This document shows, piece after piece, positions 29,901 through 48,429 of a stretch of DNA of 64,000 nucleotides; within the stretch, counting starts at the first letter, position 1, and the number at the start of each line of letters is the position of its first letter. The DNA comes from an uncultured Candidatus Saccharibacteria bacterium (lineage in GTDB: Bacteria > Patescibacteriota > UBA1384 > XYA2-FULL-43-10 > 1-14-0-10-43-13). The DNA is taken from positions 799-64,798 of the forward strand of contig CAYQPT010000003.1 in assembly GCA_964419835.1 (NCBI GenBank), given 5' to 3'. The position numbers and the translations under genes were made by a program. The notes under the pieces were generated by a model that was not told where the DNA came from, searched no databases, and saw nothing but the letters and a program-made list of their open reading frames with translations.

Positions 29901-30302
29901 TTCGGAGAGATGGAAGTTTGGGCGCTTGAAGCTTACGGCGCAGCTCATACTCTTCAGGAAATGCTTACAATCAAATCTGACGATGTTGTTGGACGAAGCA
30001 AAACATACGAATCAATTATTAAGGGTGAGAAGATACAAAAGCCGCTTATCCCAGAAGCGTTCAATGTTATGGTGAAGGAACTTCAGAGCTTGGGCTTAAA
30101 GGTGGATCTTTTGGCACCGAAAATTGATCCAAACGCAATCGAAGACGAAATAGTAAGCCCTGTAGTATTAAAAACAGAAAAAGAGGATTCTCTTCCAATT
30201 GAAAATGACGAAGATATTGACGAGAAGTTGACCGAGATTGCAGCTGAGCAAACCGGAGAAGATGAAGATATTGTTTCAGAAGAGATCGACGAAGATAAAT
30301 AA
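26940..30302 (+). CDS. rpoB: DNA-directed RNA polymerase subunit beta (compact form)
   Basis: Conserved RpoB blocks throughout, for example [30 protein letters not shown] and [20 protein letters not shown]. Length is 1120 aa. Confidence 0.97.
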
Positions 30303-30427
30303 ATAATTAGGTAACGGTTAGGGCAACGATGCCCGTATCGGCTAGGTTGTTTGGTAGCGTAACCGTAACCCATCCGCCAGCTGGCGGAACGATACTGGTT
30401 TCGTAACCGATTAACGAAAACCGATAA
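30303..30427 (+). repeat. about 120 bp hairpin-rich intergenic element, copy 1 (after rpoB), core palindrome CCGCCAGCTGGCGG
   Basis: Near-identical to 34810-34934. It contains hairpins GGGCA-acga-TGCCC and TTCGT...ACGAA, and a closing helix GGTAACGG/CCGTAACC. Confidence 0.85.
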
Positions 30428-30458: not shown

Positions 30459-33400
30459 ATGGCGAACATAGAAATTAAAGACCAGCTTAATGCAACCGAC
30501 TTTGAGGCAATTCAACTTTCTGTTGCCTCATCAGACGACATTCTAGCATGGTCTCACGGTGAAGTTTTAAAGCCGGAAACAATCAACTACCGTACACAAA
30601 AGCCGGAAAGAGACGGTCTTTTCTGCGAAAAAATCTTCGGTCCGACTAAGGACTGGGAATGTTATTGTGGAAAATACCGGAAGATCCGTTACAAAGGCGT
30701 TGTCTGCGACAAGTGCGGCGTTGAAGTAACAAGGTCATCAGTAAGACGCGTACGGCTTGGCCATATTGACCTTGCTGTTCCAGTTTCTCATATCTGGTAC
30801 GCAAAAGGTGCTTCCAGTATTGTTTCTATGATTTTAGATATGACTACTTCCGATTTGGAAAAAGTCGTCTATTTTGCCAGCTTCGTAACACTCTCAGTTA
30901 ATGAGGATCTAAAGAAGGCCAGCATGGAAGGTCTTGAGAAAGAGTATAAAGAATATCTGGAAGAAATAAAGAAATCGGGTGCAGAATCCGAGATTACAAA
31001 AGAAGATGTCGAGATTGCTTACAAATCGGCAAAAACTGAATTAAACGGTCTCACAATTGGAAAAATAATCTCTGAGCAGGTATATCATGAACTAAATATG
31101 AAATACGGCCAGATTATTGAAGTCGGCATTGGCGCTGAAGCAATTCTTAAACTGCTTAAGAATCTAGATATCGACAAAGAAACCGTTAGAGCTAAAGACG
31201 AATCCAAAAAACAGATCGGTTTGCAACGGGGCAAAATGCTAAAACGGCTTCGAGCTTTGACAAACCTAAAAGCAGCTAACATTGACCCCGCTTCACTCAT
31301 CTTAACCCGCCTGCCAGTTATTCCGCCGGATTTACGTCCAATGGTTCAGCTTGACGGTGGACGATTTGCCGCTTCCGACTTAAACGATCTTTATAGAAGA
31401 GTTTTGAACAGGAATAACCGGCTAAAGCGGCTTATGTCTCAGGGCGCTCCTGAGGTTATCTGTCGAAATGAGAAGAGAATGCTGCAGGAAGCTGTTGATG
31501 CTGTGATTGACAACTCAGCCAGAAAAGGCAAAGTTGCCTCATCGGCAGGAGGAAAAAGAAAATTGCGCTCACTTTCAGATATGCTTCGAGGCAAACAGGG
31601 ACGATTCCGACAGAACTTGCTTGGAAAACGTGTAGACTATTCAGGACGATCAGTTATTGTTGTTGGTCCACGGCTTAAGCTGCATCAGTGTGGTCTTCCT
31701 AAAATTATGGCTTTGGAGCTATTTAAACCGTTCATTATCGGACGGCTTATTTCCGATGGCTATGTACACAATGTTAAAAACGCAACCAGATTAATTGAAA
31801 GAGGCGAGTCATTTGTTTGGGATATTCTGGAAGATATTATTAAAGATAAATATGTTCTTCTAAACCGCGCCCCAACACTTCACAGACTTGGTATCCAGGC
31901 ATTCCAGCCGATCTTGATTGAAGGTAAAGCCATTCAAATTCATCCGCTCGTCTGTGCGGCTTTCAATGCTGACTTTGACGGGGACCAGATGGCCGTTCAT
32001 GTACCTTTGTCCGACAAGGCACAGGAAGAAGCCAGAACCATCATGCTTTCAGCCAATAACCTCTTAAAACCGGCTTCAGGTGATCCTGTGGTTACTCCTT
32101 CGTACGATATGATTTTGGGCGCCTTCTATGTTACCAAAATGGAAGAAAAAGCTAAGGGAACCGGTATGGTATTTAAGTCGGAAGATGAAGCTATTTCTGC
32201 TTATGACGGCGGTAACATTGATCTTGGTGCAAAAATAAAAGTCCGGCTAAACACTAAAGAAATTGTTGAAACTACAGTCGGCAGAATTATTTTTAACGAG
32301 ATTATTCCTAATGAACTTGGTTTCATAAACGACATATTCAATAAAAAGGCAATCTCCAAATTGGTTGACAAGATTTACCGTCAATTAGGAACGGAGAGAA
32401 CAGCTCAATTTGTAGATGACTTAAAGGATTTGGGCTTCAAATACGCTCAAAAGTCCGGATTAACCTTTGCCGTTGACGATATTCACATCCCTTCAACCAA
32501 AGCGGCTATCCTCAAGTCTTCAGAAGACCAGCTTTCAATTATCGACAAACAGTATCAAAGGGGTCTTATTACCGACGAAGAAAGATACGCCAAAACAATT
32601 GAGCTTTGGATGAACGCTCAGGGCCAGATCGAAAAAGATATGATGGATCAATACTCAAAGGAAAATGACCTTTTCATTGTTATGACATCAGGTGCCAGAG
32701 GTAATGTTGCTCAGATGATTCAGGTTGCCGGCATGAAGGGGCTCGTTGCAGATACAACCGGTTCCATTATAGAACTTCCGATTAAATCAAACTTTAAAGA
32801 AGGTCTCTCCGTATTTGAGTATTTTAACTCAACCCACGGCTCCCGAAAAGGCCGAGCTGACACCGCTCTTCGAACTTCAGAAGCAGGTTATTTGACTAGA
32901 AGATTGGTTGATGTTTCTCAAGACACAGTTATTACTGAAGATGATTGTAAGAGCAAAAACGGAAGAATTATTTCCAGGGAATTTTATGCTGCGCTGGGTG
33001 AAAAGTGGGACAAATACCTTCTTGGCAGAGTTTTGTCAAAAGCCGCTGCGGGCGTTAAGGAAGGCACGATAATTACTCACGCCGAGGTCGAGAAATTTGA
33101 TACCGCAAAGCTAAACGAAATTGAAATAAGATCACTTCTTGGTTGTCATGCTAAACGGGGCGTCTGTAAAGCATGTTATGGCCTAGACTTGGCGACAGGT
33201 AAGTTGGTCGAAGCTGGCGCAACTGTTGGTATTGTTGCGGCTCAGGCAATCGGCGAACCTGGAACACAGCTTACCATGCGTACCTTCCATACTGGTGGTG
33301 CTGCTGGTGAAGATATCACTACCGGCTTGCCTCGAGTTGAAGAGCTTTTTGAGTCTAGAGTACCCAAGAAACCGGCAATCCTCTCAGAAATTGACGGCAA

Positions 33401-34184
33401 GGTAGTCATTCGAACAGAAAAAGACGGATCTATTTTGACCGTGTCGGGTAAGGGAGAAAAATCAGAAGCTATCAGCTTAACTGAAGGATACAACTGGGTC
33501 GTTGAGGACGGATCAAAGCTTAAAGCAAAACAGATTATTGCTGAAAAAGAAGGTGAAAAGCCAATCAGAAGCAAAGTTAACGGCGAGATCAGATTGAATA
33601 ATCGAAAAGCCATTATTAATAGCGCCGGCAACATTGTCCGCGAATACTCTGTCGGAAGATTGACTCAGCTTAAAGTCAAAGACGGCGATTTGGTTTCCAA
33701 GGGTCAGCCATTGACTGAAGGACATTATGATTTGTCCATGAGCTTAAAGTTTGCTGGAAGATCAAAAACCATCAACTATATCATCAAGCAGGTACAGTCA
33801 ATTTATGAGTCTCAGGGACAAGATATTAACGACAAGCACCTTGAGGTTATTGTCCGATTGATGCTTTCCAAAGTTAAGATTACACTTTCCGGAGATTCAA
33901 AACTTCTTCCGGGACAGGTCACAAACTTGGTGGATGTTGAGTTGATTAATCAAAAACTTGAAAAAGAAGGCAAGAAGAAAGCCGATTTTGAGGACATCAT
34001 CATGGGTATCACCCGTGTGGCCTTAAAGACCGAAAGTTTCCTTTCAGCAGCTTCCTTCCAAGAAACCACAACCGTTTTGATCGAAGCAGCAACTTCTGCA
34101 AAAATTGATCATTTGCGCGGTCTTAAGGAAAATGTAATTATCGGTAAATTGATCCCAGCTGGAACCGGCCTGAATCAATCGTAG
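30459..34184 (+). CDS. rpoC: DNA-directed RNA polymerase subunit beta-prime
   Basis: Zinc finger CX2C...CX2C near the N-terminus, the NADFDGDQM catalytic motif, and trigger loop and bridge helix regions. Confidence 0.97.
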   Translation: MANIEIKDQLNATDFEAIQLSVASSDDILAWSHGEVLKPETINYRTQKPERDGLFCEKIFGPTKDWECYCGKYRKIRYKGVVCDKCGVEVTRSSVRRVRLGHIDLAVPVSHIWYAKGASSIVSMILDMTTSDLEKVVYFASFVTLSVNEDLKKASMEGLEKEYKEYLEEIKKSGAESEITKEDVEIAYKSAKTELNGLTIGKIISEQVYHELNMKYGQIIEVGIGAEAILKLLKNLDIDKETVRAKDESKKQIGLQRGKMLKRLRALTNLKAANIDPASLILTRLPVIPPDLRPMVQLDGGRFAASDLNDLYRRVLNRNNRLKRLMSQGAPEVICRNEKRMLQEAVDAVIDNSARKGKVASSAGGKRKLRSLSDMLRGKQGRFRQNLLGKRVDYSGRSVIVVGPRLKLHQCGLPKIMALELFKPFIIGRLISDGYVHNVKNATRLIERGESFVWDILEDIIKDKYVLLNRAPTLHRLGIQAFQPILIEGKAIQIHPLVCAAFNADFDGDQMAVHVPLSDKAQEEARTIMLSANNLLKPASGDPVVTPSYDMILGAFYVTKMEEKAKGTGMVFKSEDEAISAYDGGNIDLGAKIKVRLNTKEIVETTVGRIIFNEIIPNELGFINDIFNKKAISKLVDKIYRQLGTERTAQFVDDLKDLGFKYAQKSGLTFAVDDIHIPSTKAAILKSSEDQLSIIDKQYQRGLITDEERYAKTIELWMNAQGQIEKDMMDQYSKENDLFIVMTSGARGNVAQMIQVAGMKGLVADTTGSIIELPIKSNFKEGLSVFEYFNSTHGSRKGRADTALRTSEAGYLTRRLVDVSQDTVITEDDCKSKNGRIISREFYAALGEKWDKYLLGRVLSKAAAGVKEGTIITHAEVEKFDTAKLNEIEIRSLLGCHAKRGVCKACYGLDLATGKLVEAGATVGIVAAQAIGEPGTQLTMRTFHTGGAAGEDITTGLPRVEELFESRVPKKPAILSEIDGKVVIRTEKDGSILTVSGKGEKSEAISLTEGYNWVVEDGSKLKAKQIIAEKEGEKPIRSKVNGEIRLNNRKAIINSAGNIVREYSVGRLTQLKVKDGDLVSKGQPLTEGHYDLSMSLKFAGRSKTINYIIKQVQSIYESQGQDINDKHLEVIVRLMLSKVKITLSGDSKLLPGQVTNLVDVELINQKLEKEGKKKADFEDIIMGITRVALKTESFLSAASFQETTTVLIEAATSAKIDHLRGLKENVIIGKLIPAGTGLNQS

Positions 34185-34392: not shown

Positions 34393-34812
34393 ATGCCAAC
34401 AGTAAACCAATTAGTAAAATACGGTCGCAAAAAGACCAAAAATAAAACCAAAACTACCGCTATTAAGACAACTTTTAACTATCTAAAGAACAAACCGGTT
34501 AAGATTGATAGTGGTTGCCCTCAAAAGCGCGGTGTTTGTATTAAAGTCGGAACAATGACTCCTAAGAAACCAAACTCGGCTTTGCGTAAATTCGCCAGAG
34601 TACGGCTTACTAATGGTTTTGAAGTAAATGCATATATTGGCGGAGAAGGCCATCAGCTTCAGGAACACTCGGTTGTGCTTATCCGTGGCGGTCGTGTAAA
34701 AGACCTTCCCGGTATGCGATATCATATTGTCCGTGGTAAGCTTGATTTAACTGGTGTAAAAGACCGCAAGAAAGCCCGAAGCAAATACGGCGTTAAAAAA
34801 GCAGTAGAGTAA
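34393..34812 (+). CDS. rpsL: 30S ribosomal protein S12 with an N-terminal insertion of about 25 aa
   Basis: PQKRGVC...[10 protein letters not shown]...RLTNGFEV...[12 protein letters not shown]...[19 protein letters not shown]. An extra [26 protein letters not shown] segment is present relative to typical S12. Confidence 0.95.
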
Positions 34813-34934
34813 ATAAGGTAACGGCTAGGGTAACGATGCCCGTATCGGTTAGGTTGTTCGGTAACGCAGCCGTAACCCATCCGCCAGCTGGCGGAACGAT
34901 ACTGGTTTCGTAACCGATTAACGAAAAACGATAA
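34810..34934 (+). repeat. about 120 bp hairpin-rich intergenic element, copy 2 (between rpsL and rpsG)
   Basis: About 93% identical to 30303-30427. Compared with copy 1, two sub-sites exchange C and T in a correlated way. Confidence 0.85.
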
Positions 34935-34941
34935 GGAAATC

Positions 34942-35418
34942 ATGAGTAGAGGAAATGCAAAAACAAAGCAGCACAGAATAACACCTGACGCCAAATACGA
35001 CAGCGTTATTTTGGCAAAGTTTACCAACTACATCATGCTAAACGGCAAAAAGACTGTTGCAGAAAAGACAGTTCATGCTGCGTTAAAGCATGCCAATGAA
35101 AAGATAAATGCTCCTGAAATGGATATTTTTGATCAGGCATTGAAAAATGTCGGACCAATTCTAGAAGTAAAAAGCAAGCGAATCGGTGGTGCAAACTACC
35201 AAGTCCCCATTGAAGTTTCGAAAGACAGAAGAAATACTTTGGCAATGCGCTGGATAATTTCCGCAGCCAGATCAGGCAAAGGAAAACCAATGTCAGAAAA
35301 ACTTGCTGCTGAGTTCATCAATGCATACAACGGTGAAGGCGCAGCCATGAAGAAGAAACAGGAAACACACAGAATGGCAGAAGCCAATAAAGCATTTGCT
35401 CATTTCGCACGGTTCTGA
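34942..35418 (+). CDS. rpsG: 30S ribosomal protein S7
   Basis: S7 family sequence (MSRGNAKTKQHRITPDAKYDSVILAKFTNYIMLNGKKTVAEKTV...). Confidence 0.95.
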   Translation: MSRGNAKTKQHRITPDAKYDSVILAKFTNYIMLNGKKTVAEKTVHAALKHANEKINAPEMDIFDQALKNVGPILEVKSKRIGGANYQVPIEVSKDRRNTLAMRWIISAARSGKGKPMSEKLAAEFINAYNGEGAAMKKKQETHRMAEANKAFAHFARF

Positions 35419-35465
35419 GAATACGGATATACGGATTTAACTCAGATATACAGATTTACAAATAA
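35419..35465 (+). repeat. TACGGAT/TACAGAT heptamer repeat element (partial copy of the 95 bp family) after rpsG
   Basis: AATACGGATATACGGATTTAACTCAGATATACAGATTTACA. A hairpin and T-run follow at 35475-35510. Confidence 0.7.
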
Positions 35466-35612
35466 ATAATTATAAAAAAACACCCATTCGACTACGCTCA
35501 GGGTGTTTTTTTGTGGAAGATTGTCCGATGAGATTGAGGATAACCCATGTTATTGTTCGAGATAGGTTCCACAACAATTTAACCGTTTAACAATTTAACT
35601 ATTTAACCAACC

Positions 35613-36059
35613 ATGAACCTAACATCGGACGATTTCAATAATTGTGACTACATTCCGGAGGAATACACTTACGACGGTGAAAATATGAATCCACCGCTCG
35701 AGATTCACGATGTGCCGGAAAAAGCCAAAAGCTTGGCTTTAATTATGGAGGATCCCGACGCCCCTAATGGCGAACTCATTCATTGGCTACTTTGGAATAT
35801 CCCTCCGGCTGAGAAAGAGATCGACAGTGAACAATCATTGCCTTTAAACGGTGTTTGCGGGATTACCAGCGCCGGTAAGCCGGGTTATACCGGCCCCTGT
35901 CCGCCCACAGGAGAGGAACACAGGTATTTTTTTAAGCTTTATGCGTTAGATATCAAGCTTGATCTGTTTTGTAGCGCAAATAAAATTGATCTAAAGCGGG
36001 CAATGGATGGCCATATTATAGAAAAAGCCGAACTAGTCGGACTTTATAGAAGGAAATAG
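35613..36059 (+). CDS. YbhB/YbcL family phosphatidylethanolamine-binding protein (PEBP)
   Basis: DPDAP...HW conserved motif and C-terminal GPCPPTGEEHRYFFKLYALD. Confidence 0.8.
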   Translation: MNLTSDDFNNCDYIPEEYTYDGENMNPPLEIHDVPEKAKSLALIMEDPDAPNGELIHWLLWNIPPAEKEIDSEQSLPLNGVCGITSAGKPGYTGPCPPTGEEHRYFFKLYALDIKLDLFCSANKIDLKRAMDGHIIEKAELVGLYRRK

Positions 36060-36630
36060 ACCACCAATAAAAGGAGTAGCCCACCGTCGTTGGAAGCGAC
36101 GGTGGGCGATGGATCCGAGCGTGCAACCGATTGGTCGCCGCTGAGTGAAACGGACATGTCCGCTGGTATTTCTTACACTCTTTCAGTCAGAGTTGTCGGT
36201 TGCCAGGTCGAGATGAATCCGACCAAAGTTTCGCCGAAAAGCGAGTCAATGCGCACATAATTGTGCGACTGGGAGGTGGGGGCATCTTTCGTCGCCCCCA
36301 GAGTCAAGCAAATTGCCTGCTAGCGAACCCAAGGGCTCGCATTGCTTCCCAAGTCGGGGCGATCATAGACTGACCCTGCGAACCGACCCTCGAAATCGGG
36401 GTCGAAACGCAGTTACTACCGCCAGTGACAATCGCTGCCAGGGCTACTTCCGTTGGTGTAGCACCGACGAGGTAGGGTGTCGCAGACACACGTAAGAGGA
36501 AAATCGAAGCCGTTAAGAGCAAATCTCCCATCCTCCTTTCACAAGCACAACGAACAATACGCTTGATAATAGGAAATATAGCACTAGTAAAAATACCGTG
36601 CAATAGGGTGCAACTGTGTATAACTCATAA

Positions 36631-37752
36631 CTAGATCACTTTCTTATCGGCCAGGTATTTGGCGATGTCATCCACGGTTAATATTCCTACAAGCTGATTA
36701 TCTTCAAGAATGGTGACAAAGCCAACATTTTTTGAAACCATCAGCTTTAATGCGTCAATCGCTTTGTCATTTTCCTGAAGATAAAAATTATGCAAAAAAC
36801 TTCTCATCAATTCGTAAACACGCGTTTCTTCGGTAATATGAGCACTATTTTTACGGATATCATCCAGCGAAATTGTCCCTACAACGGTGTTGTCTAAAAT
36901 CACAGGCAAATTATCGACATTATATTTCAGAAAAAATTCTTCAATAAGAGAATTAATAGTTAAATATGGTGTAACTGTCAGCATATTTCTATTTAAAATC
37001 TGCTTGATTTGTACTTTTTCAAGCGCAGTTCTAATCAAGAGCTCCATATACCCCTGTCCCGCCGCTTGATATAAAAACAAACCGATCAAAATGAGCCAAG
37101 CACCGCTGAACAAATCGGTTGTAATAATCCGTACTATTCCAAATACCACAACTAAAACGGCAATCATTTTACCGCTGTCGCTGGCGATTTGCGTTGCTTT
37201 TTTTAGATTTTTGGTATAGCTCCAAGCAATTGAGCGTAAAATTCTACCTCCGTCGAGCGGGAAACCGGGCAAGAGGTTAAACATACCGAATAGAAGATTG
37301 ATCTGCGATAGAGTCGAAGCAAGCACGGTCACATTAAATAGCAGGCCATGCTGTCTTGTAAGTAAATAAATTACAAAAAATATGCCGGATAAAACAAAGC
37401 TGGTAATGGGACCGGCAATTGCAACGCGGAATTCAGTTCTGGCGTTGTCGGGCTCCTCGAAAAGCTCGGCGATCCCGCCAAATAAAAATAATGTAATACG
37501 ATTAATTTTAAAACCATTCTTTTTAGCTGTGATAGAGTGAGCTAGTTCATGAATGAGAGCGGAAGAAAATAAGAGCACTGAAGTTATGGCGGCGAGAATA
37601 ATATTAGTTTGGATGCTGGCGGTTGAATTTAAAGTAGGGAAGTATTTTGCCGAAAGAAGCCATATTAAAAGTGCGAAAATTATAAACCAAGAATAATCAA
37701 GAAATATCTCGATGCCAAAGAGCTTTCCAATTTTAATACCGCTTGTTCGCAC
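36631..37752 (-). CDS. site-2 protease family (M50) zinc metalloprotease with tandem C-terminal CBS domains
   Basis: HELAHS zinc-binding motif and NLLPGFPLDGGR motif in TM helices, with two CBS-like domains at the C-terminus. GTG start. Confidence 0.8.
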   Translation of the reverse strand: MRTSGIKIGKLFGIEIFLDYSWFIIFALLIWLLSAKYFPTLNSTASIQTNIILAAITSVLLFSSALIHELAHSITAKKNGFKINRITLFLFGGIAELFEEPDNARTEFRVAIAGPITSFVLSGIFFVIYLLTRQHGLLFNVTVLASTLSQINLLFGMFNLLPGFPLDGGRILRSIAWSYTKNLKKATQIASDSGKMIAVLVVVFGIVRIITTDLFSGAWLILIGLFLYQAAGQGYMELLIRTALEKVQIKQILNRNMLTVTPYLTINSLIEEFFLKYNVDNLPVILDNTVVGTISLDDIRKNSAHITEETRVYELMRSFLHNFYLQENDKAIDALKLMVSKNVGFVTILEDNQLVGILTVDDIAKYLADKKVI

Positions 37753-38117
37753 GGGTATGAGAGTAGCAAAGCAAGTTAACTTAATCGTTATGATTTATCA
37801 TAAATATAAAAAATACCTGCAAAAAAGCAGGATTTTTATGTATTTGGTATTATTGAGGGGAGGCGGCTGGCAAGACCGGGGAGGTCTATGCCAGCATGTT
37901 TTGGGGATCGAAAGAAGTCGAATCCAATAGGGGTCTTTGAGGTAATCCCGATAGCTAACTACCGATTGTCGTTTCTGATAGAGTAGCTACCGTAATGAAG
38001 TAGCCAAATCTTTGGTCTCTACAACAAAGAAGTGGCAATGCTGCGACTCGTGCATCTTGCACTCCTCACAACAGCCTTATTTTCGCACAAATTGAGATCA
38101 AAGTCAAGCGTGTCCGA

Positions 38118-38146
38118 TTGACATTTGAGCGCTAGTATGCTATAAT
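38118..38146 (+). promoter_or_regulatory. perfect consensus sigma70 promoter TTGACA-17 bp-TATAAT inside the GC-rich island
   Basis: TTGACA at 38118-38123 and TATAAT at 38141-38146, followed by a 120 nt GC-rich leader with a CCCCTAAGGGG hairpin. Confidence 0.55.
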
Positions 38147-38270
38147 ACTAAAGTAATCTGCTGGAGAAGGGTTCCCCTAAGGGGATCTCATCTCGGGCAG
38201 GCAACATTAGGCAACTGCTCGACATCACATCCGGCCCAGGTCGGATTTCCACGGAAGGACTGGTGAGAGA

Positions 38271-38627
38271 ATGTTCAGAGACAGAAGGTTCATCGCGGTT
38301 GTGCTGCTTGCGTTAGTGGTTGGAGGAGTGTGGGGACTGTTCCACAACGACGTTTTGGGCACCAAGCGTGCTCGAGCCAACTACAATGAAGGTGTCAGAG
38401 CCTTCAAAGCCGACCTGAACGGTCGCGTATGGGTTTCTCACAAGATTCGCACGGGCGAAGGATATTACGACGCCTGTGTGGTCTCCGGATTTCACAAGGA
38501 GATAACGGATTATCGGCGTGATGTGATCGAGGAAACGCTTCAAGCGTATCCCCTTAACACTCACATCGATGTTACCTTTCTCCACCCCGGAGATGTTGTC
38601 TGGGTGCCTGTCGGTCGAGACGACTGA
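38271..38627 (+). CDS. hypothetical signal-anchored small protein (GC-rich island ORF)
   Basis: N-terminal TM helix RRFIAVVLLALVVGGVWGLF. Lies downstream of the perfect promoter. Coding status is uncertain. Confidence 0.35.
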   Translation: MFRDRRFIAVVLLALVVGGVWGLFHNDVLGTKRARANYNEGVRAFKADLNGRVWVSHKIRTGEGYYDACVVSGFHKEITDYRRDVIEETLQAYPLNTHIDVTFLHPGDVVWVPVGRDD

Positions 38628-39603
38628 TTGGCCCGCAAGTGGCTTCGGTCACAGAGTAGTTTCCCGAGCGTGCTTTCACGCTCGGGAACATCCCCCTTTT
38701 CTTCTCATGTGTGGAATCAGTTGAATTCATCATGAGCAGAGAAAGAAACGTCTGCCGGTTAGGGGAAGAAAGATGAAATTGCATCGCATTATTTACGTCT
38801 TCATTGTCCTTTCCACCTTCCAGTATGCTCGTGTGTGGAACGGCGACCTTGCGTCGTATGTACGTTTACACACGAACAATCATGGATACGCGGCATTATC
38901 CGCGTTGCTGGCCTACCTGACAGAACTCGCTCTTGCGAGCTGGGTAATGGTAACAATAACCGCGCGCGAGCGACAGGACCAAGCCAGAGAGAAGGTCAGC
39001 AATGCTGGCCCTCGAGCGCCTGGCCCGAACGATGTAGCGCCTCTCTAAACTAGCAGAGTCGCTAACCGGCTTTGCATTGACTGCTTCCCGAGTGAGGTTA
39101 TGGAGAATTAGAATGCGAACAACAGTAGTTGTCGACTCAACGAGGAGAGATAGCTGCACAAATGGGACCGATTCCCCGACAATACTGGGGCTCAAAGAGG
39201 CCCTCGAACTCATCAAAGTGATGATCGAGGACACCGGTCAGATGTTCGCAGCTCTCCCTCTTACGTATGGCCAGAAAGGAGACTGGCCGACGAAGTACAT
39301 CATATATTCTGCGCACTATATGGCAGGATAATATGATAACTCGTCATGGACCGGTCCGCACGTACGGGTGCGGACCATTAACCTCGAGAATCGAATCATC
39401 CGCCAGCTGGCGGATTGGATTTTCGAGAGTTGATTAAATAACTGATTAGATCCCTTGTTCATCAAAATAGTTTGATGAAGTAGAGGACTAATTAAGAGAG
39501 ATATCCACACCTTACGAGGTGTGATTTTTTTACACAAAAATGTTTTGGGTGTAGAATTGGGGTGGAGAAATTCTCTGATAGTTCTACCGACAGGGGGTAC
39601 GAT

Positions 39604-39870
39604 ATGTTCACGGAAATGTCACGGGATCATTTCTATCTGCTAGTACAGACAGCCGTACTACTCATCTCTGCTCTGCTTGCTCTGCAGTACTTCGGACTCA
39701 ATGCGATTGTCCATTCTTGGCACACTTGGGTCTTAATGGGTGCTCTCGTGCTATGCTGGCTGAACGCCATACTTCGTAATGGCAGGCCACTGTCTTGGGA
39801 ACCGAGCGCACTCTTGATGTTCGTGCTGGTAGCTCTCAGCTGCATCCAGGTAGGGGTAGGCAAGCATTAG
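39604..39870 (+). CDS. hypothetical small membrane protein (GC-rich island ORF; the ORF extends upstream to 39562)
   Basis: Three hydrophobic helices. GGGGGT lies 5 nt before the ATG at 39604. Confidence 0.3.
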   Translation: MFTEMSRDHFYLLVQTAVLLISALLALQYFGLNAIVHSWHTWVLMGALVLCWLNAILRNGRPLSWEPSALLMFVLVALSCIQVGVGKH

Positions 39871-40232
39871 GTTCTCATTCTGCAGGCATTAGTAATCCTG
39901 CAAACCCGTCCTGCACTATTCAGTGCAGGTTCGAGGTTTGTAGCAGATTTGTACCATATGCGATAGGATCTCTCGCCTTCCTCGATCCACCCACCGGTGG
40001 GCTCGTAATGGGTCGGGATGACAGGGGGGGGTTGTTGGGGGAAACAATTGACAGCGCAGGAAAAATTATGTTATTATTGCTCTGAAAGAGGGGCGTTTTT
40101 GTTTTTACTACGTAAAAAAATTCTTAATTTTTAAGTATTAATTTCTAAATTAAGTCCAAAATTTATTAAAATATTTAAAATTGAATAAAAATTTAAAATT
40201 ATAAATTAGAAATTCAATTCCGAAGGAATTCC

Positions 40233-42305
40233 ATGGCACGAGATTACACCCTAGAAAAAGTTAGAAACTTTGGCACAATTGCCCACATTGACGCCGGTAA
40301 AACCACTGTTACTGAAGGCATTTTGTACATTTCTGGAAAAGTGCACAAAATCGGTGAGGTGCACGAAGGCGAAGCAACAATGGACTGGATGGAACAAGAG
40401 CGCGAACGTGGTATTACCATCACCTCTGCTGCTACAACCGCATTCTGGAAAGATAACCGTATTAATATCATTGACACTCCCGGTCACGTTGACTTCACAG
40501 TTGAAGTTGAACGGTCTCTTCGCGTACTCGACGGCGCTGTTGTTATTCTCGACGGAAAAATGGGTGTTGAGCCACAGTCGGAAACTGTTTGGCGACAGGC
40601 CGACAAATATCAAGTTCCTCGAATGTTTTTCTGCAATAAAATCAACCAAACCGGCGGTGATTTTTACCGCTCTTTGGACTCAGTTCATGAGAGATTATCT
40701 AAAAACGCCTACCCAATTCAGCTTCCAATCGGTTTCGAACAAGCCATCAACGGTGTTGTCGATTTAGTGGAAATGAAAGCATTAACCTATAAAGAATATA
40801 CAGACAAAGCCCTTACGGTTGGCGAAATTCCTGCCGATATGGTTGAAAAGGCCAACGAGTATAGAGAGAAATTAGTTGAAAAAGTTGTCGAGTATGATGA
40901 CGCAGCTATGGAAAAATACTTGGGCGGTGAAGAAATCTCTAACGACGAACTAAGGAAATTGATTCGAAAAGCTACCATTTCAGGCGAATTTTACCCAATG
41001 CTCGGTGGAGACGGAAGAGGCGTAATCGTTTCTGCCTTGCTTGATGCCATTGTTGATTATTTGCCTTCGCCGCTTGATGTTGTTCCTGCTAAAGCAACCG
41101 ATGCTAAAACCGGCGAAGAACTTGAGATCAAACCTACTGATACTGAGCCTCTTGCTGCTTTGGCATTCAAAGTTGCTTCAGACCCATTTGTTGGCAAATT
41201 GATCTTCTTCCGCGTTTATAGAGGCGTTATGAAAAAAGGATCCTACGTATTAAACGCAACTTCCGGAGAAAAAGAGAGAATCGGCCGAATTGTTCGATTA
41301 CACGCTAATCATCGGGAAGAAGTTGACGAAGTTTTTGCAGGTGAAATTGCCGCTGCGGTAGGACTGGCCAAGACAACCACAGGTGACACTCTTTGTGAAC
41401 TAACTGCTCCTGTAATTCTAGAAAAAATTGTATTTCCAGAGCCAGTTATTGATATTGCAATCGAGCCAAAAACTAAGGCCGACCAAGAGAAAATGGGTAT
41501 TGCTCTGCAGAGATTGGCCGAAGAAGATCCAACTTTTAGAGTTAGGAGCGATGAAGAAACAGGACAAACCATTATTGCCGGTATGGGCGAACTTCACCTT
41601 GAGATCATTGTCGACCGAATGAAACGCGAATTCAAAGTTGAAGCAAACGTTGGACAACCTCAGGTTGCTTTCCGTGAAACCTGCAAACAAGAAGTTACTC
41701 AAGAAGGTAAATATATCCGTCAGACCGGTGGCCGAGGACAATACGGTCATGTTTGGATCAAACTCATCCCTCAGGAAGCAGGTAAGGGCTTTGAATTTAT
41801 CAACAAAATTACCGGTGGTGCAATTCCTAAAGAGTTCATCAATCCTGTTCAGGCCGGCATTAAAGAAGCAATGGAACGGGGAGTAATGGCCGGTTATCCG
41901 GTTGTCGACGTTGCCGTTGAGCTTTACGATGGTTCCTTCCACGAAGTTGACTCTTCTGAAATCGCCTTTAAAATTGCCGCTTCGACAGCATTTCAAGATG
42001 GTTTTAAGAAAGCAGACCCTGTTATTCTAGAGCCAATCATGAAAGTTGAAGTAACAACTCCTGAAGAATCAATGGGTGATATTATCGGCGACCTTAACGC
42101 TAAGCGTGGTCAAATTCACAAAATGGAAGACCGAGCCAACTATAAAGTTATAAGAGCAGATGTACCACTTGCCTCAATGTTTGGTTATACTACAAACTTG
42201 CGCTCTATGTCACAGGGACGAGCATCTTCCGTAATGGAATTTTCACATTATGCCGAAGTTCCTGCGCATGTGGCAAAAGAAATCATCGAAAAACGATCAA
42301 AATAA
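40233..42305 (+). CDS. fusA: translation elongation factor G
   Basis: AHIDAGKTT and DTPGHVDF GTPase motifs and the full five-domain EF-G architecture. Confidence 0.97.
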
Positions 42306-42405
42306 TACGGATATACGGATTACAACAAGATATAGGGATGTACGGATAAATAACAAATCTGTAAATCTGTAAATCAGCGAAAGATCTGTAAATCTGTATT
42401 GCAGA
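42306..42405 (+). repeat. about 95 bp TACGGAT/ATCTGTA inverted heptamer-repeat element (after fusA)
   Basis: TACGGATATACGGAT...GATGTACGGATAA...ATCTGTAAATCTGTAAATCAGCGAAAGATCTGTAAATCTGTA. The arms pair with G-U wobbles only in the + strand RNA. Confidence 0.8.
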
Positions 42406-42409
42406 GATA

Positions 42410-42438
42410 TTGCATTATTATAGGTTATTTGTTATAAT
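42410..42438 (+). promoter_or_regulatory. sigma70-like promoter TTGCAT-17 bp-TATAAT upstream of tuf
   Basis: TTGCAT at 42410-42415 and TATAAT at 42433-42438; GGAAAGGAGA SD lies before the tuf ATG. Confidence 0.5.
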
Positions 42439-42520
42439 CAATCAGAAATATAAAATTAAATAAGTTACTAGTGCCCCACTTTATTAAGCGGGGTAATTCC
42501 CATTCGGGAAAGGAGAATTA

Positions 42521-43699
42521 ATGGCTGCAGAAAAATTCGAACGAACAAAGCCGCATGTAAACGTCGGTACCATCGGTCACGTTGACCACGGTAAGACTAC
42601 TTTGACTGCGGCTATTACTCACGTCCTTGCTAAAAAAGGCATGGCTGCTGAGAAGAAATTTGAGGACATTGACAATGCTCCTGAAGAGAAAGAGCGTGGT
42701 ATTACCATTGCTACTTCCCACCAAGAGTATGAAACAGACAAAAGACACTACGCTCACGTAGACTGTCCGGGCCACGCTGACTATGTTAAAAACATGATCA
42801 CCGGTGCTGCACAGATGGACGGCGCAATTTTGGTTGTTTCAGCTGCTGATGGTCCTATGCCTCAAACAAGAGAGCATATCCTTCTTGCAAACCAGATTGG
42901 TGTTCCGGCAATCGTTGTTTACCTAAACAAGTGCGATATGGTTGACGATGCTGAGCTTTTGGATCTTGTTGAGATGGAAGTAAGAGAACTTTTGACCAAG
43001 TACAAATATGATGGCGACAATGCCAAGATTATTCGCGGATCAGCCCTTAAGGCGCTTGAAGATGATGCAAATTACACAAAATCAATTGACGAACTTATGG
43101 ACGCCATTGATGAAGCTATTCCAGAACCAAAAAGAGAAATCGATAAACCTTTCTTGATGCCGGTTGAAGATGTCTTCTCAATCAAAGGCCGAGGCACAGT
43201 TGCCACAGGCAGAATTGAGCAGGGTATCGTAAAAATCGGTGATGAAGTTGAAATCGTTGGTATTAAAAAGACTTCCAAAACTGTTGTTACTGGTGTTGAA
43301 ATGTTTAAAAAGCAGCTCGACCAAGGTCAAGCCGGCGACAATGTCGGACTTTTGATTCGAGGTATTGAGCGAGAAGATATTGAAAGAGGTCAAGTTTTGG
43401 CCAAACCAGGTTCAATTACTCCTCACACAGAGTTTGATGCAGAAATTTACGCTTTGACCAAAGAGGAAGGCGGACGACACAGCCCATTCTTCAAAGGTTA
43501 CAAACCTCAATTCTACATCCGAACAACCGATGTAACCGGTGAAATCGAATTTGAGCAAGAAATGATCATGCCTGGCGATACTGCCAAAGTTAAAGTTAAA
43601 CTTATCCAGCCGATTGCTATGGACGAAGGACTTAAGTTTGCTATCAGAGAAGGTGGTAAAACAGTTGGTGCCGGCGTCGTAACAAAGATCAATAAATAA
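42521..43699 (+). CDS. tuf: translation elongation factor Tu
   Basis: [23 protein letters not shown] and NKCD motifs. Confidence 0.98.
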
Positions 43700-43790
43700 A
43701 TTTTCAGTTGTCAGTAAATCAGTAAATCGGTTGTCAGTTCTTATACTTACAACTGATTCACTTACAACTTACAACTAGTAATATCGTTCG
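43700..43790 (+). repeat. intercistronic imperfect palindrome of tandem heptamers (GTAAATCAG arm / CTTACAACT arm) after tuf
   Basis: CAGTTGTCAGTAAATCAGTAAATCGGTTGTCAG...ACTTACAACTGATTCACTTACAACTTACAACT. Confidence 0.75.
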
Positions 43791-43855
43791 CAGTGGGGCC
43801 TAATCTAAAATTGGGCTTCACACGAAAAGTATCAACATAATTCAAGAAAAAAGAA

Positions 43856-44179
43856 ATGCCAGAGAAAAGTGCAGTAAAACAGAAGATTAGGATCAAGCTT
43901 AAAGCTTATGATTATCGAATCATCGACAAATCAGCTGAGCAGATCATTCAAACCGCTATCCGATCAGGCGCAGCTGTCGCCGGACCGGTTCCGCTTCCTA
44001 CAGAAACAAGCAAGGTGACTGTTATCAAGTCTCCCCATGTTCACAAGGATTCACGCGAACAGTTTGAAATGAGAGTTCACAAACGATTGATTGATATCTT
44101 AAATCCTACTTCCAAAACAATCGATAACCTTATGGGGCTTGACCTTCCGCACGGCGTTGACATTGAGATCAAAATGTAG
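43856..44179 (+). CDS. rpsJ: 30S ribosomal protein S10
   Basis: [20 protein letters not shown]...GPVPLPT...[13 protein letters not shown]. Confidence 0.95.
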
Positions 44180-45188
44180 TATGCTGGTCTAAGCGATCAG
44201 TTATATTTGCGCTTAATAAAAAGGTCCTGGATATCGTCTCGCCAATCGGCGGATGGATCCAAGACATATTATTTATGTAGCAGGCAAATAAATGACGATT
44301 AGTCATTTATTGTTTGCCACTTAAGTAGGCAAAAACCTTAACATTATTACTGTCCTTAGGCCGTCTGGGATCCTGCATGACCAGGATGGATTGGGCGGCT
44401 CTCGCTCTCCCTTTATGGGGAGATCGCTGAGATTGAGCGTACAACGCTCTCTAAGGATGAGGTCTCGGAGATCTTACCTAAGCCCGGTGGCTGCTGGGGG
44501 ATCACTTCTTGGGTTTGAAATCTGAGACTTCAATTTACCACGCAGTGCGTGTAATATCGCCTGTGTGGGAGGGTTATGTGCTTACTTTTCCTGGATTGGA
44601 GACTCGCAAACGTTGCCTTTCAGATCAGGTAAGTATCATCACCCCCCGGAGAGCAGCCCACTTAGCGACCCTCGAGTTGCGGGTATAGGGGCGACTCTCT
44701 CACTCTTTCTGGCAGTTCTTGGAAAGATGAGAGTTTTGAGTAAGAGGCTCTACCCTCTCCGGGAAACAAGTTCCATCAGTCTTTCGCACAGCGTTTGTAT
44801 TGCGTAGTGCCGCTGTGGGGAAGGAAGCAGAATCAGCACTCAGGTCGGTTGATTCTGTCAAGTAGCAGGGTACTCCCCCTGCTGCTACCAAGGGGTATTA
44901 TACCCCTTCTGTCGGAGTAGGTGGTGCGTTCAGTGCTCCTGCACCACCTACTCAAAATCTTTAACAATTTATTGTTTGAACAAAGTGAGAACTAAAGCAA
45001 TTTACTTATCGCTCCGCTCGAAGAATAAATAGGATCCTTAAACAAGATACAGATCCCGAAACAAGTTTGGGATGACGCAAAGCGTCAGTTCAGGATGACG
45101 ACAAAATTATCATTCGCTATCTGTAAATTCGTAAAATTAGTAATCTCCTGCAGCAGCAGGATCCCGCTTCCAGCGGGGCATAGTCACG
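44180..45188 (+). ncRNA. about 1 kb GC-rich, ORF-free, hairpin-dense segment inserted between rpsJ and rplC: candidate large structured RNA or non-coding inserted element of unknown class
   Basis: No ORF longer than 80 aa on either strand, and none with protein-like composition. GC is about 50% against about 38% in the flanks. Many perfect stems: GGCAAATAAATGAC/GTCATTTATT-TTTGCC at 44280-44318, GAGTAGGTGGTGC/GCACCACCTACTC at 44908-44950, AGCAGGG/CCCTGCT, AAGGGG/CCCCTT and GAGCG/CGCTC. Confidence 0.3.
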
Positions 45189-45935
45189 ATGAAATTCATA
45201 TTAGCAAGAAAAATTGGGATGACACGCGTATTCGACCAAGACGGCCGAAGTTTTGCAGTTACTAAAATTGCCGCTTTGCCTTGCTCTATCTCACAGGTTA
45301 AGGACAAAGAGAAAGACAAATACAAAGCAGTTCAAGTTTCCGCCTATAAAGGCGAGACCTCGCCCGTTAAGGGCGGGAGTGCCATCAAAAGGAAAACCGT
45401 GAAGATTGCTGAATTCAAAGAGCAAAACAGTAAAAGATATAAAATGGGTGAAGATGTTAACCTGAAACAGTTTAAGAAAGACGAAATGGTAACTGTTGAA
45501 GGCACAGGAAAAGGCAAAGGTTTTGCCGGTACAGTTAAACGACATGGTTTTGCCATGGGTCCTGTTTCACACGGCTCAAAGAACATTCGAAAGCCCGGTT
45601 CAATCGGCGGCGGATATCCACAAAGAGTCGTAAAAGGACGAAAAATGGCCGGACGGATGGGTGGACAAAATGTTACTGTTAAAAACCTAAAAATTGTTGA
45701 TGTAGATGACCAGTTTATCTTGATTGCAGGAAGCATTCCCGGACCAAACAAATCAATCGTAAAAGTTTATGGCAAAGGCGAAAAAGCCGAAGAAGTAATT
45801 GACCACGCAGCCGAGGAAGAAAAATTGGCACAGGAAAAGATGCTTGAAGCTGACAAAGAAGCCAAAGAGGAGAAGAAAGAAGATCAAGTTGTGAGTGAAG
45901 CTTCACCGGTCGAAGAGTCAACAGAAGATAAATAA
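45189..45935 (+). CDS. rplC: 50S ribosomal protein L3 with a K/E-rich C-terminal extension
   Basis: MKFILARKIGMTRVFD...TVEGTGKGKGFAGTVKRHGF. Confidence 0.95.
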   Translation: MKFILARKIGMTRVFDQDGRSFAVTKIAALPCSISQVKDKEKDKYKAVQVSAYKGETSPVKGGSAIKRKTVKIAEFKEQNSKRYKMGEDVNLKQFKKDEMVTVEGTGKGKGFAGTVKRHGFAMGPVSHGSKNIRKPGSIGGGYPQRVVKGRKMAGRMGGQNVTVKNLKIVDVDDQFILIAGSIPGPNKSIVKVYGKGEKAEEVIDHAAEEEKLAQEKMLEADKEAKEEKKEDQVVSEASPVEESTEDK

Positions 45936-46012
45936 TCGTAGCAGGTATCAGGTAGCAGGTATTATGCAACCTCCTGATACATACTACCTAATACATTATA
46001 CGAAACAAGAAA

Positions 46013-46687
46013 ATGAAAGTATCAGTTTTTACAAAATCGGGTGAGAAAAAAGAAGATTTGACACTGTCAAACATATTCGGCGTAGAAGTTAGCGGAAAAG
46101 CGGCTACTCTTTATATTAATTATTTGCGTGCAGCGCTCAGGTTTCCTGTTGCAAACACAAAAAACCGAGGCGAGGTATCTGGCGGTGGACGCAAACCTTA
46201 CAGACAAAAAGGTACTGGTAATGCTCGAGCCGGTTCAAGCCGTTCCCCTCTATGGGTTGGCGGTGGTGTAACATTTGGCCCGACAAACGACCAGAACTTT
46301 CACAAAAGAATCAATTCAAGAGAGAAAAGACGGGTTATCCTAGGTCTTATTTCGGAGTTGATTAAAGACAACAAAATGATTGTCTTGGAAGGAATTTCCG
46401 AGGAAATCAAAAAGACTAAAGAAGCAGCACAAATTTTATCCAGCGTTAAAGCCGAAGGTAAAGTTTCAGTAATCCTGTCCAAGGAAAACGGCACAGCATA
46501 TGTATCTTTCAGAAACATTGCCGGTGTTAAAATCATGAGCCCTTCAAAACTGGACATGATTTACCTGACATCTTCCGATAAAGTTGTTGTTTCAAAAGAA
46601 GCACTTGCACAATTGGAAAGTATTTTTACCCCAAAAGACAAGTCACTTTCAGATTCAACGGAAATAGAAAAAGGAGAGCATAAGTAA
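46013..46687 (+). CDS. rplD: 50S ribosomal protein L4
   Basis: [21 protein letters not shown] motif. Confidence 0.95.
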
Positions 46688-46761
46688 ATCAGTAAATCAG
46701 TTGTCAGTAAATCAGATACAAAACTTACAACTTATTCACTTACAACTTACAACTTAAAATC
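46688..46761 (+). repeat. intercistronic heptamer-repeat palindrome (GTAAATCAG / CTTACAACT family) after rplD
   Basis: ATCAGTAAATCAGTTGTCAGTAAATCAG...AACTTACAACTTATTCACTTACAACTTACAACTT. Confidence 0.75.
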
Positions 46762-47121
46762 ATGAGTAATATCATCAAAAAAGTATTAGTTTCAGAAAAG
46801 AGTTTTAGAGATGCCACTTTAGGCAAATATACTTTTGTTGTTGACTCTGGCGCCGATAAAGAAGGCATTGCTAGAATGTGCGAAAGATTGTTTAATGTAA
46901 CTGTTCTTTCTGTTAATTCAATGAATGTTATGGGTAAAGTTAAGACCACCAAACGGATCAAAGGAAGAAGAAGCGATTTCAAAAAAGTCATCTTGACTCT
47001 AAAACCTGGAGACAAAATAGATTTATTTGAAACAGAAGACAAAGAGGACAAGAAAAAAGACAAAAAGGCAGAAAAGAAACTAGAAAAGTCAAAAGTTAAA
47101 GATAAAGATAAGGCAAAATAA
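46762..47121 (+). CDS. rplW: 50S ribosomal protein L23 with a lysine-rich C-terminal extension
   Basis: VLVSEKS...KYTFVVDSGADKEGIARMCERLFNVTVLSVNSMN, followed by a KKDKKAEKKLEKSKVKDKDKAK tail. Confidence 0.9.
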   Translation: MSNIIKKVLVSEKSFRDATLGKYTFVVDSGADKEGIARMCERLFNVTVLSVNSMNVMGKVKTTKRIKGRRSDFKKVILTLKPGDKIDLFETEDKEDKKKDKKAEKKLEKSKVKDKDKAK

Positions 47122-47206
47122 TTAAGCTGTAGTATGTATAAGGTATCATGTATTAGGCGGTTTTCGTCCCTACTACTTACTACCTACTACTTACTACCTA
47201 CTAAGA

Positions 47207-48330: not shown

Positions 48331-48429
48331 ATATTAATCAAGTAGTCAGTAAATCAGTTGTCAGTAAATCAGCAGATATAAAACTTACAACTTATTCACT
48401 TACAACTTACAACTTACAACTGAAATATT
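48331..48429 (+). repeat. intercistronic heptamer-repeat palindrome (GTAAATCAG / CTTACAACT family) after rpsS
   Basis: AGTAGTCAGTAAATCAGTTGTCAGTAAATCAGCAG...AAACTTACAACTTATTCACTTACAACTTACAACTTACAACTG. Confidence 0.75.

Follow-up and report, generated by a model that had tools for sequence, protein, structure and literature searches.

A probable resident neighbourhood of accessory genes between rpsG and fusA in uncultured Patescibacteria-like bacteria

Multigene insertions lying between units of the transcription/translation supercluster have been recorded in Proteobacteria (Brandis, Cao and Hughes 2019, PMC6735719). Here, we analyzed a break within the str cluster of an uncultured Candidatus Saccharibacteria bacterium. 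It lies on a 64,000-nt stretch of DNA (the window; assembly GCA_964419835.1, contig CAYQPT010000003.1, positions 799 to 64,798), in which 4814 bp separate the end of rpsG at 35418 from the start of fusA at 40233. The original prediction had ascribed this interval, with its two GC (guanine-plus-cytosine)-rich blocks, to foreign DNA or an embedded non-coding RNA locus. This interpretation was only partly supported, and as an explanation neither reading was borne out: the same units occupy the same site in relatives whose M50 protease, encoded in the interval, is as little as 57% identical, the open reading frames (ORFs) are under purifying selection, and there was no mobility, phage, plasmid or Rfam signal. 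We rather consider it likely that the 4.8 kb represent a resident neighbourhood of accessory envelope genes, conserved within a clade of uncultured Patescibacteria-like bacteria and equipped with its own regulatory signals—in our verdict, an ordinary, previously undescribed lineage-specific synteny. A full-text literature search on candidate phyla radiation (CPR) genomes returned no paper describing this rpsG/fusA arrangement.

That the rpsL-rpsG-fusA-tuf order is interrupted, as predicted, is evident from the gene coordinates:

26940–30302, plus strand: rpoB
30459–34184, plus strand: rpoC
34393–34812, plus strand: rpsL
34942–35418, plus strand: rpsG
40233–42305, plus strand: fusA
42521–43699, plus strand: tuf
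43856–44179, plus strand: rpsJ

At the level of gene order, this is not the canonical one-unit str operon, in which rpsG and fusA are adjacent and co-transcribed; between the two lie a terminator following rpsG, genes on the opposite strand and a separate promoter for fusA. As we read it, the str cluster would long ago have been broken into separate transcription units by the resident neighbourhood. The rpsL-rpsG unit would end at its own terminator and be followed by a PEBP gene. Converging on the latter from the minus strand would be an intramembrane protease of the M50/CBS type and then a small gene, s72, under its own promoter (GC-rich block 1). Pointing away from the protease, a promoter of consensus sequence, followed by a 5′ stem-loop leader, would drive o118, a putative membrane-anchored LysM-like protein; next would come a terminator, a leader peptide enclosed in a hairpin and coupled in translation to o91 (two predicted transmembrane [TM] helices), and an uncertain ORF, o72. 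A separate promoter would serve o88 (three TM helices), the units from o118 to o88 together making up GC-rich block 2, and fusA-tuf would start from a conserved promoter of their own. Purifying selection acts on o118, o91 and s72, and promoters, terminators and leader are conserved across lineages.

Recurrence of the layout in related organisms

In the nearest genome-collection representatives (metagenome-assembled genomes [MAGs] of Patescibacteria/'Saccharibacteria'), the canonical order is retained, with a rpsG-fusA gap of 85 nt. Identity to these best matches was only 61% for rpsG, 64% for rpoC and 85% for tuf; by its sequence, the source organism is Patescibacteria-like. Closer, unbinned relatives were recovered by exact-protein look-ups of M50 and o118 homologues, giving a comparison set of metagenome contigs from nine related organisms (M50 57–89% identical, or fusA 88%). 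A metagenome scan with the M50 alignment and two generic peptide patterns gave, among the matches listed, only distant M50s (at most 42% identity). The layouts recovered are as follows:

relB (L083+L085; housekeeping genes 80–91% identical in nucleotides): rpsL-rpsG-PEBP-block 1-M50 (minus strand)-o122-o90-o84-o88
L090 (M50 74% identical): M50-promoter/leader-o111-fusA-tuf-rpsJ
L091, L096 and L097 (M50 57–63% identical): a U32 peptidase gene added beside M50
L091 and L097: continuing via small ORFs to fusA
L096 and L094: continuing the other way, to rpsG
L178: rpsG-PEBP-small ORF-M50-U32
L179: small ORF-M50-U32, the flanking gene being cut at the contig end
L181 (fusA 88% identical): U32-promoter/leader-o133-o78-fusA

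Wherever the contigs reach, all nine relatives thus carry pieces of the same layout, namely rpsG-(PEBP)-small gene-M50 and M50-(U32)-promoter/leader-small genes-fusA, which lends the junctions phylogenetic support. M50 orthologues adjoin rpsG/PEBP or the fusA-ward genes wherever a contig extends into a neighbouring gene (L092/L093 and L180 do not); L090, L091, L094–L097, L178, L179 and L181 retain M50 beside rpsG/PEBP, the promoter/leader with small genes ahead of fusA, or both. The core units were found at the same site in nine of nine related lineages, with only the peripheral genes U32, o72 and o88 being patchy. Because the M50-containing layout recurs across the relatives' contigs, the split of the str cluster is, to judge from these sequences, a fixed trait of the clade and not an event in this genome.

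The abrupt steps in composition at four positions (~36060, 36630, 37850 and 40080), together with the origin of the sequence from a MAG, might suggest an assembly chimera in which unrelated GC-rich fragments were joined to the str cluster. However, a 6603-bp contig from a separate assembly of run SRR8925824 is 100% identical to window positions 34898–41500 and spans all four junctions, a 988-bp contig from SRR29243425 crosses 37850, and every type of junction recurs in different species and different samples. The independent identical contig and the orthologous junctions effectively refute a chimera, whose chance we put at next to nil.

Genes and signals between rpsG and fusA

The first part of the interval comprises three features:

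35474–35512, plus strand: intrinsic terminator closing the rpsL-rpsG unit, AAAAAAACACCC...GGGTGTTTTTTT, a perfect 12-nt inverted repeat
35613–36059, plus strand: PEBP/YbhB-YbcL gene (Pfam PF01161, E 1.6e-38; TIGR00481, 121 bits)
36631–37752, minus strand: M50 site-2-type metalloprotease with two C-terminal CBS domains (Pfam E 6e-23 and 1e-18)

At the position of the rpsG terminator, relB likewise has a hairpin and T-run with another stem sequence (CAACTCG/CGAGTTG). Domain matches and host-like composition agree with the AT-typical PEBP gene and minus-strand M50/CBS protease that had been called here. PEBP, which also follows rpsG in L178 and L097, has a ratio of nonsynonymous to synonymous substitution rates (dN/dS) of 0.11 relative to relB, and M50 one of 0.045. 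The protease combines M50 (PF02163, 81.7 bits; cut-off 27.2) with tandem CBS domains (PF00571, 67.8 bits in two stretches), and H68, E69 and H72, invariant in 11 orthologues, fit the HExxH motif; the NCBIfam daptide-protease model scored 34.8 bits, far under its 300-bit cut-off.

Between these two genes lies block 1, which, read from the minus strand, appears as a single small-gene unit:

36575–36603, minus strand: predicted s72 promoter, TTGCAC-17-(TG)cTATATT
36304–36522, minus strand: s72 (72 aa, TTG start), with the Shine-Dalgarno (SD) sequence GAAAGGAGG at 36532–36540
36108–36303, minus strand: hairpin-rich 3′ region of s72, about 200 nt, 97–100% identical to relB outside a patch at 36190–36240
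36079–36107, minus strand: terminator of the unit, an 11-bp stem followed by UACUCCUUUU (U-run)

Block 1 (36060–36630) had been described as ORF-poor, which the conserved s72 contradicts. Homologues with promoter and SD site are located downstream of M50 in relB, L094, L097, L178 and L179 (six lineages with the window), and the arrangement TTGCAA-17-TGnTATAWW at the promoter is also seen in relB, L094, L097 and L178. The family shares a core, T/S-x-E-V-x-L-x-A-I..G.SNC, and dN/dS was 0.39. In the diverged N-terminal half, substitutions between window and relB were distributed 14:8:4 over codon positions 3:1:2 (counted by hand). The perfect 10-bp hairpin noted earlier in this block (CCCACCGTCG/CGACGGTGGG, 36080–36106) is indeed there and coincides with the s72 terminator. 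The single substitution seen in relB leaves a U-G pair when the minus strand is read, whereas the plus strand would have a C-A mismatch, and the change in a second hairpin, GCGACC/GGUUGC, is likewise G-U-compatible on the minus strand and a mismatch on the plus strand. Hairpins with T-runs, of other stem sequence, stand shortly before the gene that follows in L097, L178 and L179, and L094 has one just after the stop codon of its s72 homologue. A plus-strand ORF, o56 (36090–36260, from the Logan gene caller), was rejected as it has no codon periodicity.

Block 2 (37850–40080) lies beyond the far end of the protease gene and opens with a spacer, promoter and leader that precede o118:

37816–37831: terminator-like hairpin, bidirectional, CCTGCAAAAAAGCAGG, at the M50/block 2 boundary, with equivalents in relB and L090
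37850–38080, plus strand: GC-rich spacer, in which only the hairpin GCTGGCA..TGCCAGC (37866–37895) is common to relB and L090
38118–38146, plus strand: predicted sigma-70 promoter, TTGACA-17-TATAAT with TG
38153–38205, plus strand: 5′-terminal stem-loop of a ~118-nt leader, arms UCUGYUGGAG/CUCGAGCAG conserved, apex variable
38271–38627, plus strand: o118, with a predicted N-terminal TM helix, a long helix and a LysM-like β-α-α-β domain
38661–38705, plus strand: intrinsic terminator after o118, TTCCCGAGCGTG/CACGCTCGGGAA then a T-rich tail

The spacer was considered as a decayed U32 gene and this was rejected, since tblastn detected no remnant. As for the textbook promoter of the original prediction, it obtained 12 of 12 in our scan; both hexamers are kept in relB, L090, L097, L091 and L181 (six lineages with the window) while the flanks diverge, and by sequence the promoter looks functional. 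The structured leader of ~120 nt could also be confirmed as a prediction, with a conserved stem-loop across the six lineages: RNAalifold returned 15 pairs, and 90% of cells were paired as compared to 38–48% with slid partners, although only 3 pairs had changed on both sides, not above shuffles.

Stem-loops at the very 5′ end of bacterial mRNAs can act as stabilisers, for example in the ompA and aprE leaders. Similar to these, the hairpin is long, lies within a few nt of the predicted transcription start and has conserved arms and a variable apex, so that we infer a role in stabilising or regulating the mRNA. In contrast to ompA and aprE, this leader is known from sequence and its start is predicted, and it may instead bind a regulatory protein or ligand.

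Relative to its relB counterpart, o118 is 58% identical in amino acids, with a dN/dS of 0.19, and homologues lie upstream of fusA in L097 and L181; L181 also has a hairpin and T-run after its homologue. An exhaustive profile search of 1.84 billion representatives returned 12 proteins at E ≤ 0.001, with nine full-length relatives (119–136 aa) of the same architecture. AlphaFold modelling from a 2-sequence alignment was unusable (predicted local distance difference test [pLDDT] 50), and an 11-sequence alignment was used instead; the latter gave a pLDDT of 81 overall and of 85–94 for residues 50–118, folded as strand-helix-helix-strand. In Foldseek searches against the PDB, the top ~30 hits were almost all LysM domains with weak E-values (0.17–1), and the TM-score relative to LysM domains of 46–49 residues was about 0.6. 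The model shows the β-α-α-β order that defines a LysM fold (~45–65 residues), but the insert that separates helix 2 from the final strand is longer than in PF01476. The window's o118 gives no match to the LysM profile (PF01476), and only one of 11 family members touches the Pfam LysM models (LysM, E 0.067; LysM2_NFP, E 0.037), far below threshold. The family pattern G-[ED]-G...A...SG...N..N...PGD.[IV]W.P resembles the LysM consensus. Taken as modelled, o118 would be a membrane-anchored protein with a LysM-like fold, for which glycan binding is putative.

The remainder of block 2 leads up to the fusA promoter:

38697–38748, plus strand: conserved hairpin, UUUCUUCUCAUG...CAUGAGCAGAGAAA, enclosing the start of the leader ORF
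38732–38776, plus strand: 14-codon leader ORF, MSRERN..., whose TGA overlaps the ATG of o91
38773–39048, plus strand: o91, small membrane protein with two TM helices, 40–45% identical in amino acids to relB, dN/dS 0.32
39113–39331, plus strand: o72, lineage-specific small ORF with SD GGAGA, coding status uncertain
39353–39376, plus strand: 9-bp hairpin, GGTCCGCAC/GTGCGGACC
39506–39531, plus strand: intrinsic terminator, CACACCT..AGGTGTG then T7, conserved in relB
39529–39557, plus strand: predicted promoter of the o88 unit, TTTACA-17-TAGAAT, identical in relB
39604–39870, plus strand: o88, small protein with three TM helices, in the window and relB only
39880–39929, plus strand: two hairpins downstream of o88, in which relB changes fall in loops or give G-U pairs
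40048–40077, plus strand: predicted fusA-tuf promoter, TTGACA-18-TATTAT, with a small hairpin and T-run directly after it (to 40106)

With o118, o91, o72 and o88, the block holds the three to four small ORFs, membrane proteins included, that had been announced for it. The hairpin/leader-ORF element is 80–81% identical in nucleotides to L091 and L097 and also occurs in relB and L181; L091 has the leader ORF joined, in frame, to the gene that follows it. Small proteins with two TM helices occupy the o91 position in L090, L091 and L181, the homology of these three being judged by eye. o72 showed no codon periodicity and no homology to o84, the relB ORF in that position. The predicted 9-bp hairpin can be read directly from the sequence; in relB the arms read GGCCTGCA/TGCAGGCC, so that two base pairs have changed in a compensatory manner. 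A hairpin motif with a CCCT...AGGG/GGGG frame, located in the window at 39445–39492, recurs in several relatives in the space that separates the last small gene from the fusA promoter, as in L090 (two copies upstream of that promoter) and L181 (~1370–1400). A homologue search with o88 found relB as the sole match (94% amino-acid and 96% nucleotide identity, dN/dS 0.22). The region of the fusA promoter is 77–86% identical in nucleotides to L090 and L097 and is present in L181. The hairpin and T-run that follow it (CTCTGAAAGAG..TTTTTGTTTT), kept in L090, L097 and L181, may from their sequence represent a leader attenuator for fusA-tuf.

Composition, near-identical segments and origin of the blocks

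On recalculation in 300-nt windows, both GC-rich blocks proved real: GC content was 49–55% at 35850–36600 and 49–54% at 38100–39450 and 39600–40050, with a dip to 42–43% at 39300–39750 and about 35–45% in the rest of the window. The figure of ~55% given earlier for 37850–40080 was too high, the mean being about 50–51%, although GC is indeed raised there. GC at third codon positions (GC3) was 0.55–0.58 in the small ORFs versus 0.34–0.46 in rpoBC, rpsL/G, PEBP, M50, fusA and tuf, so the contrast is no mere effect of amino-acid composition. Elsewhere in the window (~41% GC overall), two further GC-rich genes have a GC3 of 0.58–0.60: a 482-aa ORF at 17699–19147 (plus strand), weakly nitronate-monooxygenase/FabK-like, and an orphan 270-aa ORF at 25575–26387 (minus strand). 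In third-position composition, both match the small ORFs between rpsG and fusA.

In relB, the GC peaks fall at the same places as in the window, and its small genes have a GC3 of 0.60–0.76. GC3 exceeds that of the neighbours also in the small-gene homologues of L090 and L097 as well as relB, and in the s72 homologues of L097, L178 and L179; the difference is small or absent in L091 and L094, with one of the two L091 small ORFs being host-like. Raised GC3 at the same loci, seen in four of the five relatives in which the small genes were measurable, argues against a recent transfer. Moreover, a neutral foreign signature should decay over a divergence at which synonymous sites are saturated, as between window and relB, and we therefore read the blocks as long-resident with their GC content maintained. 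High GC would then probably be an old, maintained property—related to mRNA structure or to amino-acid or codon choice—rather than the mark of a recent transfer.

Searches for mobile elements gave a uniform picture. No ORF examined carried an integrase or transposase domain, none of the small ORFs matched PHROGs, PADLOC or NCBIfam, blastn against phages and plasmids and one pattern scan of viral contigs had no match, and ARAGORN found no tRNA or transfer-messenger RNA (tmRNA). Flanking direct or inverted repeats, considered as attachment (att) sites or terminal inverted repeats, yielded only short pairs at chance level. Of what foreign DNA would entail, the compositional contrast is thus present, synonymous sites included; mobility features and a patchy presence of the core are not.

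The M50 flanks have nonetheless received insertions in relatives. An rve-family insertion-sequence transposase directly follows M50 in some strains (L092 1506–2600, L093 1444–2538), and insertions resembling miniature inverted-repeat transposable elements (MITEs), with ends TGTCATCCCCGTG...GGGAATGACA, are found at L083 ~1010–1140 (the rpsG-PEBP spacer of relB) and just downstream of M50 in L091/L092. These flanks are hence insertion-prone in the clade.

Such observations might place the site among old or recurrent hotspots of horizontal transfer, where the M50-fusA space and the sequence downstream of M50 take up small genes from a GC-richer pool—for example that of a host organism or of an unrecognised mobile element—and where the blocks would be foreign in origin, if not recent. 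The GC3 values of window and relB would fit, as would the other window genes of the same GC3, the orphan nature of the proteins (some ten relatives at most in billions of sequences), the varying gene content among relatives, and the transposase and MITE-like insertions beside M50. Yet promoter, leader, o118 family and hairpin/leader-peptide element have orthologues in lineages with an M50 identity of just 57–63%, meaning that at least the core has long been inherited vertically; a foreign composition evolving neutrally should have ameliorated since then, and it has not. Integrase, att repeat, tRNA and similarity to phages or plasmids are likewise missing from the site. We consider this explanation unlikely; an ancient acquisition of the blocks, or a turnover of the peripheral genes (U32, o72/o84, o88), could still have taken place.

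An RNA function might be suggested by the unequal divergence between window and relB. Synonymous divergence (dS) was 0.8–1.9 for rpsG, PEBP, M50, o118 and o91, as opposed to 0.29 for s72 and 0.12 for o88. At block 1, the stretch 35997–36190, which takes in the last 63 nt of PEBP, differs from relB by 3 mismatches and 36240–36365 by none; these segments, 98–100% identical, lack codon periodicity. In the hypervariable patch between them (36190 to 36240), hairpins are re-shaped rather than lost. The low-dS tracts point either to constraint at the nucleotide level, be it on the structure or on the function of an RNA, or to DNA recently exchanged by the two lineages.

Could the GC-rich segments then be mainly structured RNAs—3′ untranslated region (UTR)-derived or dual-function in block 1, overlapping o88, and a cis-regulatory leader—with the ORFs secondary or spurious? 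Besides the near-identity and the low dS of o88, folding z-scores versus shuffles (for 36040–36600, −5.6 with the minus and −4.0 with the plus strand; −4 to −5.6 in all), hairpins that persist by way of compensatory or G-U changes, stems remodelled within the variable patch and the conserved leader stem-loop all speak for it. However, the predicted non-coding RNA locus found no family in Rfam: with Rfam 15 at the gathering threshold the whole window had 0 matches, and even at E<5, 35300–40400 gave only chance-level hits (mir-144, 26 of 60 bits; RAGATH-26, 19 of 86 bits). A covariance model built on the 3′ region of block 1 matched window and relB and no other relative, and hence provides no evidence for a widespread, deeply conserved RNA family. 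The ORFs have conserved SD sites and starts, protein homologues and dN/dS below 1; the covariation of the leader did not exceed shuffled controls; and near-identity between just two sequences is equally compatible with recent exchange. For the o88 unit, RNAalifold on two sequences was uninformative, as the method avoids broken pairs by construction. Block 1 was also considered as RNase P, tmRNA, signal recognition particle (SRP) or 6S RNA, all of which were rejected on the basis of Rfam, ARAGORN and the lack of conserved motifs by eye. Overall, a predominance of RNA appears improbable. Slightly less doubtful, albeit still hard to credit, is a narrower version in which 35997–36365 (minus strand) and the o88 unit (39530–39930) are undescribed functional RNAs and, along with leader and leader peptide, form a control layer that links the envelope module to the translation-factor genes. 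If true, a reduced-genome symbiont would possess a lineage-specific, RNA-based control by which a site-2 protease (S2P), a LysM-like protein and small membrane proteins are tied to translation genes.

The resident-neighbourhood interpretation, which we favour, has to be weighed against several points. A GC3 of 0.55–0.58 against 0.34–0.46 is a classic signature of acquired genes, and further genes of the window reach a GC3 of ~0.6. Relatives also differ in what lies between M50 and fusA: U32 may be there or not, the o72 of the window is unrelated to the o84 of relB, and o88 is confined to two lineages, window and relB. The two near-identical segments are far closer to relB than the synonymous sites of their neighbours allow, and a plain model of resident genes fails here. 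As to function, the LysM assignment depends on a predicted structure, weak Foldseek E-values and sub-threshold Pfam matches, and the link between protease and small proteins is one that we infer. With this proviso, the small proteins and the protease may together constitute a cell-envelope or surface module.

Repeats, implications and comparison with known systems

A perfect 18-bp palindrome, ATCCGCCAGCTGGCGGAT (core TCCGCCAGCTGGCGGA), had been reported within block 2 at 39398–39415 and can be read there directly. Its core (16–18 bp) occurs five times in the window versus 0.02 expected:

22744–22761: palindrome copy
30372–30389: palindrome copy
34879–34896: palindrome copy
39398–39415: palindrome copy in block 2
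60978–60995: palindrome copy
30305–30427 and 34812–34934: 123-nt repeat, copies 93% identical

The reported sharing with a rpoB/rpsL repeat was likewise correct, two copies being situated inside the 123-nt repeat of the rpoB/rpoC and rpsL/rpsG spacers. As neither the corresponding sites of relB nor any other fetched locus contains the palindrome, it has the look of a young miniature repeat specific to this species, and it is uninformative on the origin of the block. Similar to repetitive extragenic palindromic (REP) and MITE repeats, it is a perfect palindrome scattered in intergenic spacers, with presence/absence polymorphism relative to the closest relative; compared with these, there are only five copies in 64 kb and no associated transposase was identified.

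Two other peculiarities of the spacers were noted. Tandem A/C-rich motifs of 8-nt period, (GTAAATCA)n, (CTTACAAC)n and (TTTAACNN)n, fill many spacers of the ribosomal-protein cluster (42298–53632, 35573–35623, 54376–54426 and 60310–60388); often they reach the start codon, with no SD sequence, and for this lineage they might represent an unusual kind of translation-initiation or spacer element. The rpsJ-rplC spacer (44180–45188) extends over 1 kb and has no convincing ORF, many hairpins, 47–53% GC at about 44380–44900 and no Rfam match; in L091 and L097, this spacer measures 600–740 nt, with only short patches conserved.

For annotation, the locus carries a caution: a sharp GC step and orphan ORFs within a conserved operon can mimic foreign DNA or a hidden RNA gene. 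An M50/CBS gene between rpsG and fusA may serve as a clade marker for Patescibacteria/CPR, and the site adds two families of very small, uncharacterised proteins associated with a site-2 protease, of which the putatively membrane-anchored, LysM-like o118 could matter for the surface attachment of an episymbiont. The conserved strong promoter with its leader might be usable as an expression signal, and the two puzzlingly invariant segments are of interest for transcriptomes.

Two described systems allow a closer comparison. With SpoIVFB-type site-2 proteases, the protease shares the architecture of Peptidase_M50 and C-terminal CBS domains; a small protein with a hydrophobic N-terminus, directly downstream in six lineages, would fit a substrate or partner, which makes s72 a candidate by position. 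Unlike SpoIVFB, the locus has neither a sigma or anti-sigma factor nor a sporulation context. With the insertions described for the rpoBC-str-S10-spc-alpha block (PMC6735719), it has in common that accessory genes sit inside an otherwise colinear transcription/translation block, and that the flanking units keep their orientation and keep or gain promoters and terminators of their own. In contrast to those proteobacterial cases, which lie between operons, the break occurs inside the str unit, between rpsG and fusA, includes a pair of oppositely oriented genes and, as far as the contigs of its relatives indicate, is fixed across a whole Patescibacteria-like clade.

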